Origin: Escherichia coli
GTDB lineage: Bacteria > Pseudomonadota > Gammaproteobacteria > Enterobacterales > Enterobacteriaceae
Direction: 5' to 3' (one strand)
Assembly: GCF_003334355.1 (NCBI RefSeq)
Contig: NZ_QOWP01000010.1
DNA: 64,000 bases
The notes under the pieces are model-generated. The model was not told where the DNA came from. It did not search any database and saw nothing but the letters and a program-made list of their open reading frames with translations. Below are positions 37,715 through 37,888 of this stretch, piece by piece. Both the position numbers and the translations under genes were made by a program. The stretch's first letter is position 1, and each line of letters opens with the position of its first letter.

Positions 37715-37888
37715 ATGGCAAACCATCGAGGCGGTTCCGGCAATTTTGCAGAAGACCGCGAAAGAGCATCAGAAGCAGGTAAAAAAGGTGGACAGCACAG
37801 CGGGGGTAATTTCAAGAATGACCCGCAGCGCGCATCTGAAGCAGGTAAAAAAGGTGGCAAGAGCAGTCACGGCAAAAGCGACAACTAG
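37715..37888 (+). CDS. ymdF: KGG-repeat stress-induced small protein YmdF, 57 aa
   Basis: ORF 37685..37888; known N-terminus MANHRGGSGNFAEDRERASEAGKKGG at ATG 37715 after GGAGG RBS; two RASEAGKKGG repeats. Confidence 0.85.
   Translation: MANHRGGSGNFAEDRERASEAGKKGGQHSGGNFKNDPQRASEAGKKGGKSSHGKSDN

Follow-up and report, generated by a model that had tools for sequence, protein, structure and literature searches.

A direct repeat in ymdF and the repeated, one-way deletion of a KGG unit in natural strains of Escherichia

The stress-protein gene ymdF of Escherichia coli contains a near-identical 26-bp sequence twice, and this raises the question of whether the repeat is the trace of a recent internal duplication and whether it serves as a recombination substrate in natural strains. 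The window, which is the whole stretch of 64,000 nucleotides of E. coli DNA that was analysed, was read directly and by script, and both copies were recovered at exactly the coordinates given by an earlier sequence-only reading. The features concerned are listed below.

37705..37710, plus strand: Shine-Dalgarno-like GGAGGT, 4 nt ahead of the ATG at 37715 (read from the sequence; RefSeq CDS boundaries agree)
37715..37888, plus strand: ymdF CDS, 57 aa plus stop, MANHRGGSGNFAEDRERASEAGKKGGQHSGGNFKNDPQRASEAGKKGGKSSHGKSDN (ORF list, translation, RefSeq annotation, two Pfam KGG matches)
37727..37792, plus strand: KGG unit 1, 22 codons, RGGSGNFAEDRERASEAGKKGG (unit partition, codon alignment, Pfam KGG aa 10-30)
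37793..37858, plus strand: KGG unit 2, 22 codons, QHSGGNFKNDPQRASEAGKKGG (unit partition, codon alignment, Pfam KGG aa 32-52)
37766-37791, plus strand: direct repeat copy 1, 26 nt, GCATCAGAAGCAGGTAAAAAAGGTGG (sequence read and script)
37832-37857, plus strand: direct repeat copy 2, 26 nt, GCATCTGAAGCAGGTAAAAAAGGTGG (sequence read and script)

The repeat, its gene and the age of the duplication

The two copies are identical at 25 of 26 positions, the sole difference being a synonymous Ser codon (TCA/TCT, 37771 versus 37837), and they share an exact core of 20 nt, GAAGCAGGTAAAAAAGGTGG, at 37772-37791 and 37838-37857. They are spaced 66 nt from start to start, which is 22 codons, with a gap of 40 bp, and each encodes ASEAGKKGG in frame within the 57-aa open reading frame 37715-37888. 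The Arg codon ahead of the motif is AGA in one copy and CGC in the other, so that the DNA repeat begins one codon into RASEAGKKGG. A repeat search extended the pair to a 62-nt unit (37739-37800 versus 37805-37866) with 71% identity. Allowing up to three mismatches, the 26-mer matched nothing beyond these two copies on either strand of the 64-kb window, and no such matches were found in 100 dinucleotide-preserving shuffles.

The gene was identified with a 751-nt query centred on the repeat, which matched at 100% identity a chromosome of E. coli in RefSeq that is annotated there with ymdF and rutG; the gene order in this segment of the window is agp-yccJ-wrbA-ymdF-rutG-rutF, ymdF lying between wrbA and rutG. 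The 57-aa protein gave two matches to Pfam KGG (PF10685), at aa 10-30 and aa 32-52 (i-Evalues 4.3e-09 and 7.5e-09), both spanning model positions 1-22, and together with the RefSeq identity these bear out the earlier claim that the repeat encodes the two KGG-type motifs of a 57-aa stress protein. RefSeq names the matching genes 'general stress protein' or 'con-10 family general stress protein'. No NCBIfam curated HMM matched this protein, or the 35-aa form described below, at E <= 0.01, so the 'con-10 family general stress protein' name must rest on another type of rule. A PDB sequence search with YmdF found no solved structure with detectable sequence similarity. Further KGG-repeat proteins are B. 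subtilis GsiB and Neurospora con-10. An in-frame ATG upstream at 37685 would give a 67-aa open reading frame, and certain annotations (P0025, P0033) take this or longer starts; the GGAGGT and the RefSeq boundaries favour the ATG at 37715 and the 57-aa form.

The gene consists of two contiguous 22-codon units with 14/22 residues and 42/66 nt in common, and nearly all of the nucleotide identity between them lies in the last nine codons (ASEAGKKGG), seven of which are identical. The same tandem layout is found in the paralog yciG and in homologs from Salmonella, Klebsiella, Enterobacter and Cronobacter. The composition of the protein is visibly rich in Gly, Lys, Ser and Asn. Its tail, G48-K-S-S-H-G53-K54-S55 (window 37856-37879), literally fits GxxxxGK[ST], but agreement with a pattern, in a protein said to be disordered, does not speak for a P-loop. 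The Pfam description quoted in PMC9262955 places a Walker-A-like GxxxxGK[ST] after the KGG motif, and PMC9262955 assigns it to YciG, not YmdF. The fitting tail is retained in both long and short ymdF alleles.

A sigma-70 consensus scan gave no convincing promoter near ymdF, and Rfam models matched nothing in the gene, the only matches being REP-derived and downstream of it. The ymdF-rutG intergenic spacer is dimorphic in E. coli: the window has an insert of ∼175 bp (about 37964-38140) with REP-type palindromes and a terminator-like hairpin at 38117-38138, and this part of the query was covered in 1,739 of 5,426 complete E. coli genomes, the others matching only to about 37963. Rfam ES036 matched at 38009-38051 on the minus strand, barely over the gathering score, and the naRNA4 matches were partial. 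In strain E2865 (positions 1-1000 of its locus), prophage tail-fibre and antirepressor genes adjoin ymdF upstream in place of agp, yccJ and wrbA, an arrangement consistent with a prophage integrated at wrbA. Downstream, the annotations of 06-3462, EC21GDE043, 19AR0253 and BEN5202 treat rutG as a pseudogene, on account of an internal stop or a frameshift.

The age of the duplication was assessed by comparing each unit with its orthologs and with its neighbour. Unit 1 against unit 1 and unit 2 against unit 2, across the ymdF genes of Salmonella, E. albertii and E. fergusonii, matched at 59-65 of 66 nt, and ymdF units matched the corresponding E. coli yciG units at 48-57 of 66. Unit 1 against unit 2 matched at only 38-42 of 66 nt across the ymdF orthologs compared and at 35 of 66 in yciG; away from the motif, the two units of ymdF agree at only 18 of 40 nt. 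As orthologous units are far closer than units within a gene, the repeat marks no recent duplication and whole units are not being homogenised. The internal duplication that had been read from the repeat is therefore real, with the qualification that it is ancient (59-65/66 between orthologous units against 42/66 within the gene). The reverse polarity, in which a one-unit gene is ancestral and the two-unit form is a recent internal duplication in E. coli, could draw on the 96% identity of the 26-nt stretch, which alone might resemble a recent event. It is refuted by the matrix of unit orthology, in which units are orthologous across genera and diverged within the gene, 18/40 outside the motif; two-unit proteins are moreover the norm in Salmonella, Klebsiella, Enterobacter, Citrobacter, Cronobacter and in yciG, and short alleles nest inside long-allele haplotypes. 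We give this reading practically no credence.

The high identity of the 26-nt stretch appears instead to come from a conserved motif for which both units use the same codons. Intragenic gene conversion (concerted evolution), actively keeping the motif stretches of E. coli identical so that the 20-mer is no by-product of codon choice, was considered as the alternative. Agreement between the copies falls from 25/26 positions in E. coli through 24/26 (E. fergusonii) and 23/26 (E. albertii) to 20/26 (Salmonella), and a Gly codon of unit 2 is GGT in E. coli, as in unit 1, but GGA in the sister species. Under genome-average codon usage, a repeat of at least 20 nt arose in just 0.8% of synonymous resamplings of the same protein. 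Against conversion, a single site separates E. coli from E. fergusonii, for which one point mutation is enough, and the units show no homogenisation outside the motif. The presence of seven identical codons in ten gave P = 0.03 under genome-average usage and an unremarkable P = 0.33 under the gene's own codon preferences, the latter a partly circular null. Whether the perfect 20-mer needs a special explanation thus depends on the null model chosen, and a single point change or a micro-conversion could suffice for the slightly better repeat of E. coli. Concerted evolution as the cause of the identity is unsupported by the unit-orthology matrix, the codon test hinging on the usage assumed, and we consider it doubtful; shared codons of a conserved motif are the preferred account.

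One-unit alleles and their origins

The sequence-only reading had called the repeat a potential recombination substrate, and natural alleles in which one unit has been lost exactly, in frame and repeatedly give substance to that suggestion. In the first similarity search the matched span of two genomes, PI6 and 06-3462, fell short of that of the rest by exactly 66 bp; both carry a 108-nt CDS for the 35-aa protein MANHRGGSGNFAEDRERASEAGKKGGKSSHGKSDN (WP_001273654.1). Alignment of the short allele revealed a clean 66-bp in-frame gap with a junction composed of TCA (from copy 1), the 20-nt core and C (the base after copy 2), which places the crossover within the perfect core. The missing segment is given below.

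37772..37837, plus strand: 66-bp segment absent from one-unit alleles (window aligned with short-allele loci L001-L013)

The register of the deletion is ambiguous inside the 20-nt core, and all positions from 37772-37837 through 37792-37857 give the same product. The 35-aa protein retains one KGG unit, with a single full-length Pfam KGG match (1.4e-09), and its N- and C-termini are unchanged relative to the 57-aa form.

Among 5,426 complete E. coli genomes, the ymdF locus was present in 5,417, the inter-repeat segment in 5,065 and an uninterrupted one-unit junction in 350; these counts are mutually consistent. Like the other genome counts here, they come from heavily biased sampling that contains O157:H7 in excess, and do not give frequencies in the population. 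The junction was counted with a stringent cutoff in place of the default E-value, at which two partial long-allele matches were joined into one place with 100% coverage. Backgrounds were separated with a longer query derived from EDL933 that spans the junction and a cluster of O157-specific SNPs. Under this more stringent search, 349 short-allele genomes comprised 299 of O157 type and 50 others, so the short allele is the standard ymdF of the O157-type background, including EDL933, TW14359 and ATCC 43894; elsewhere, half-size YmdF occurs in about 1% of other E. coli. Plasmid-typed records gave six places for the ymdF inter-repeat probe, one short junction and five for yciG, which could be mis-typed replicons or plasmid-borne chromosomal segments.

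The long allele of strain BEN5202 lacks one A from the A6 run in repeat copy 1 (equivalent to window 37781-37786), and its ymdF is annotated as frameshifted; this is either slippage of a second kind, in a homopolymer, within this repeat, or a fault of the assembly. Suspicion of that 1-nt deletion, and the fact that repeats can collapse in short-read assemblies, might suggest that the short alleles too are assembly artefacts. The 66-bp spacing is far below any read length, the 350 assemblies are of 'complete genome' level from many laboratories (including several independent assemblies of EDL933 and other O157:H7 references), the short allele is also found on hundreds of further contigs, and its presence tracks lineage, not sequencing project. 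An artefact is scarcely conceivable on these grounds.

To examine whether the E. coli deletion arose once or many times, the locus with 2-kb flanks was compared in 13 short-allele and 10 long-allele strains over 3,284 gap-free flank columns. The 13 sampled short alleles lie on at least seven flank haplotypes, 41-91 sites apart, and the figure of at least seven independent events in E. coli derives from these 13 loci. Several short alleles are nearly indistinguishable in their flanks from long-allele strains: EC21GDE043 differs from BEN5202 at no site and 19AR0253 at one, Ec1120 differs from K-12 MC1061 at two, and the PI6 group has no differences from E2865 downstream. Three junction haplotypes were found, TCA..GGC in most strains, TCA..GGT in B19374 and TCT..GGT in Ec1120, and they match the local background, GGT being the K-12-type variant one base past copy 2. 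Background-specific SNPs lie 1 and 15 nt from the repeat, at 37858 (C>T in B19374 and Ec1120) and 37873 (C>T in EC21GDE043).

E. coli recombines often. A one-unit allele that arose once and then spread across lineages by homologous recombination, the repeat being no recurrent hotspot, would account for the same TCA..GGC haplotype in most short alleles. With SNPs 1-15 nt from the repeat, imported tracts would need to be shorter than roughly 100-250 bp in every case. The seven or more flank haplotypes, the 0-2 differences from long-allele strains over 3.3 kb, the three junction haplotypes, and the species-specific tails and other crossover points of short alleles in E. albertii and E. fergusonii all stand against it. 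A single origin followed by recombination is thus largely refuted, needing very short tracts in each lineage, and is very unlikely; recurrent deletion is far more parsimonious.

E. albertii and E. fergusonii also have the 35-aa form, at the syntenic locus, and both species are polymorphic. In E. albertii (C-terminus ...KSGN) the long form was on 643 contigs and the short on 50, and in E. fergusonii (C-terminus ...KSDS) on 288 and seven, long and short forms sharing the species-specific C-terminus within each species. Synonymous differences between the copies, at two or three sites in these species, allow the crossover to be located: two distinct short junctions occur in E. albertii, recombined within GAAGCAGG and within AAAAAAGG, and one in E. 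fergusonii, recombined within AAAAAAGGTGG. The deletion therefore recurs on many backgrounds and in three species, with junctions inside the repeat. Some records of short YmdF forms bear the name of Shigella flexneri. At loci L025-L030 and L034-L041 of E. albertii and E. fergusonii, ymdF is followed by a TetR-family (rutR-like) gene, plus putA in E. albertii, and unlike in E. coli no rutG-rutA operon lies beside it.

The paralog yciG encodes nearly the same units with an exact in-register repeat of only 11 nt. It served as a negative control, the weaker repeat being expected to be free of deletions, yet one-unit alleles were found, and the proposition that only a perfect 20-mer is deletion-prone was dropped. 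Of the 5,426 genomes, 14 had a one-unit deletion in yciG, and these deletions fall into at least three sequence classes; 301 contigs carried the 37-aa one-unit product, and each of two further junction registers was seen a single time. A 72-nt yciG inter-unit probe was detected in 4,573 of 5,426 genomes, and yciG may be absent or diverged in the other ∼850. In Salmonella ymdF the motif is EAGRKGG in place of EAGKKGG and the DNA repeat matches at 20/26; none of three predicted Salmonella one-unit YmdF proteins was present in a collection of 15 billion proteins. The check proposed with the original observation, for copy-number variation among ymdF alleles and KGG paralogs, therefore returned loss, in both ymdF and yciG, and no gain.

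Loss without gain and the likely route of deletion

Gain of units was sought directly. A synthetic 100-nt junction for a three-unit ymdF had no match in the 5,426 E. coli genomes at E <= 1e-30, and predicted multi-unit YmdF proteins of 79 and 101 aa were absent from the protein collection by exact look-up. Close homologs of 69-91 aa owed their length to an N-terminal extension from another start, or to a frameshift or read-through at the C-terminus, and the sole true three-unit protein encountered (P0070) is a distant relative with 76% identity. Seven proteins of 69-89 aa (P0041, P0059, P0060, P0090, P0097, P0099, P0117) have an intact two-unit body and a frameshifted or read-through C-terminal tail; the many tail-altered variants suggest that indels, or errors in sequencing, are frequent close to the 3' end of ymdF.

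A contingency (phase-variable) locus gains and loses units reversibly. At ymdF only loss from two units to one was seen, with no gain and no reversible switching, so ymdF is not a contingency locus. It resembles cagY of H. pylori (PMC2194252) in that direct DNA repeats in a coding region give in-frame length variants, and differs from the cagY described there in having two units only and one-way loss.

These data make it highly probable that ancient KGG units written in the same motif codons form a gapped repeat that is a recurrent deletion hotspot, with slippage, deduced from the natural alleles, as the likely route. In this account, the 26-bp repeat is the DNA counterpart of ASEAGKKGG, the conserved C-terminal half of the ancient tandem 22-residue units, and the codons shared by both E. 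coli units make up a direct repeat of 20 bp perfect (26 bp near-perfect) with a 40-bp gap. Misalignment of copy 2 on copy 1 would then remove exactly one unit in frame, converting the 57-aa two-KGG protein to a 35-aa one-KGG protein, most likely by RecA-independent replication slippage or sister-strand misalignment, and the short product presumably keeps some function.

The alleles have the form that slippage predicts, with precise loss of one copy and the intervening DNA, a junction inside the repeat and crossovers mapped by synonymous markers. Deletion between short, close direct repeats in E. coli is RecA-independent (Lovett et al., 1993; Lovett, 2004; both as cited in PMC4948707). The ymdF repeats, 8-26 nt long and 66 bp apart, are like those of the RecA-independent slippage deletions treated in these works and by Bzymek and Lovett (2001; also as cited in PMC4948707): the deletion is precise and keeps one copy, the crossovers lie in the repeat and the bias is to deletion. 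Unlike in the Lovett-type systems, the ymdF mechanism is deduced from natural alleles alone. The same deletion product would also result from unequal exchange dependent on RecA, or from annealing of single strands at a break. Slippage can in principle also yield expansions, yet no expansion allele was found; since a deletion bias is documented for slippage at gapped and quasi-repeats (PMC4948707), the loss-only asymmetry fits slippage, and selection against longer forms is also possible. No inverted repeat or hairpin that might promote slippage was found between the copies in 37600-38000.

The dependence of deletion on repeat length was considered across the loci. Deletions were found in ∼50 non-O157 genomes for ymdF (20-nt core), in 14 for yciG (11 nt) and in none for Salmonella ymdF (20/26), a series confounded by clonal sampling. 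In E. albertii, with exact blocks of 8 nt and 23/26 identity, the short share (50 of 693 contigs) is similar to that of E. coli. With this similarity, and with clonal sampling dominating the counts, the comparison argues only weakly that deletion frequency rises with exact-repeat length.

Function of YmdF and the meaning of unit number

The window gene is YmdF itself and shows no difference from the known family of small KGG stress proteins (YciG, YmdF, STM14_1829/SEN1538, P. aeruginosa PA2146), while the 35-aa allele of other strains has half of the usual number of repeats. The KGG proteins YmdF, YciG and STM14_1829 are intrinsically disordered, stand under RpoS control and are in part redundant in their contributions to motility and to the resistance against acid and stress (PMC7161692; bioRxiv 10.64898/2026.04.09.717482); the disorder of YmdF is stated in a passage of PMC7161692 that cites earlier work. 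An E. coli ymdF deletion mutant formed poor biofilms, which were more susceptible to antimicrobials, and ymdF complemented a P. aeruginosa PA2146 mutant (PMC9262955). In Salmonella Paratyphi A, an interaction between YciG and YhjH has been reported (bioRxiv 10.64898/2026.06.04.730116).

Acid adaptation of O157:H7 ATCC 43889 induced a 108-nt 'acidophilic repeat motif' gene (log2 2.61), which appears alongside a 183-nt acidophilic-repeat-motif gene of the length of yciG (PMC7709258). The 108-nt gene was equated with one-unit ymdF by length and annotation only, and on that match the short allele is probably expressed and regulated in O157:H7.

Textbooks or databases already cover ymdF, the KGG repeats and deletion between repeats, so the repeat noted here is of a familiar kind. 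The one-unit allele is not mentioned in the YmdF and YciG literature consulted (PMC7161692, PMC9262955 and both bioRxiv preprints), and full-text literature searches found no description of the polymorphism; papers containing both 'ymdF' and 'O157' had each word once and, by title and abstract, concerned unrelated topics. The one-unit polymorphism is thus apparently undescribed. What is modestly new is that natural Escherichia populations have lost a KGG unit repeatedly, with change in this direction only, and that the loss is fixed on the O157:H7-type background.

We also entertain, as a speculative and rather improbable extension, that unit number in YmdF is a selected polymorphism of functional consequence, the one-KGG form being a version of this disordered stress and biofilm protein that is hypomorphic or altered in function, and that selection rather than drift would explain the recurrence, the fixation on the O157:H7-type background (all 299 genomes) and the lack of three-unit forms. 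If unit number is selected, existing strains would constitute a natural series of alleles from which the role of a KGG unit could be learned.

At the level of populations, the fact added is that the ymdF repeat is a working deletion hotspot and that half-size YmdF is normal on the O157:H7-type background. Results obtained with ymdF of K-12 may consequently not transfer to O157:H7, and the natural one-unit alleles offer ready-made material with which to test whether unit number matters.
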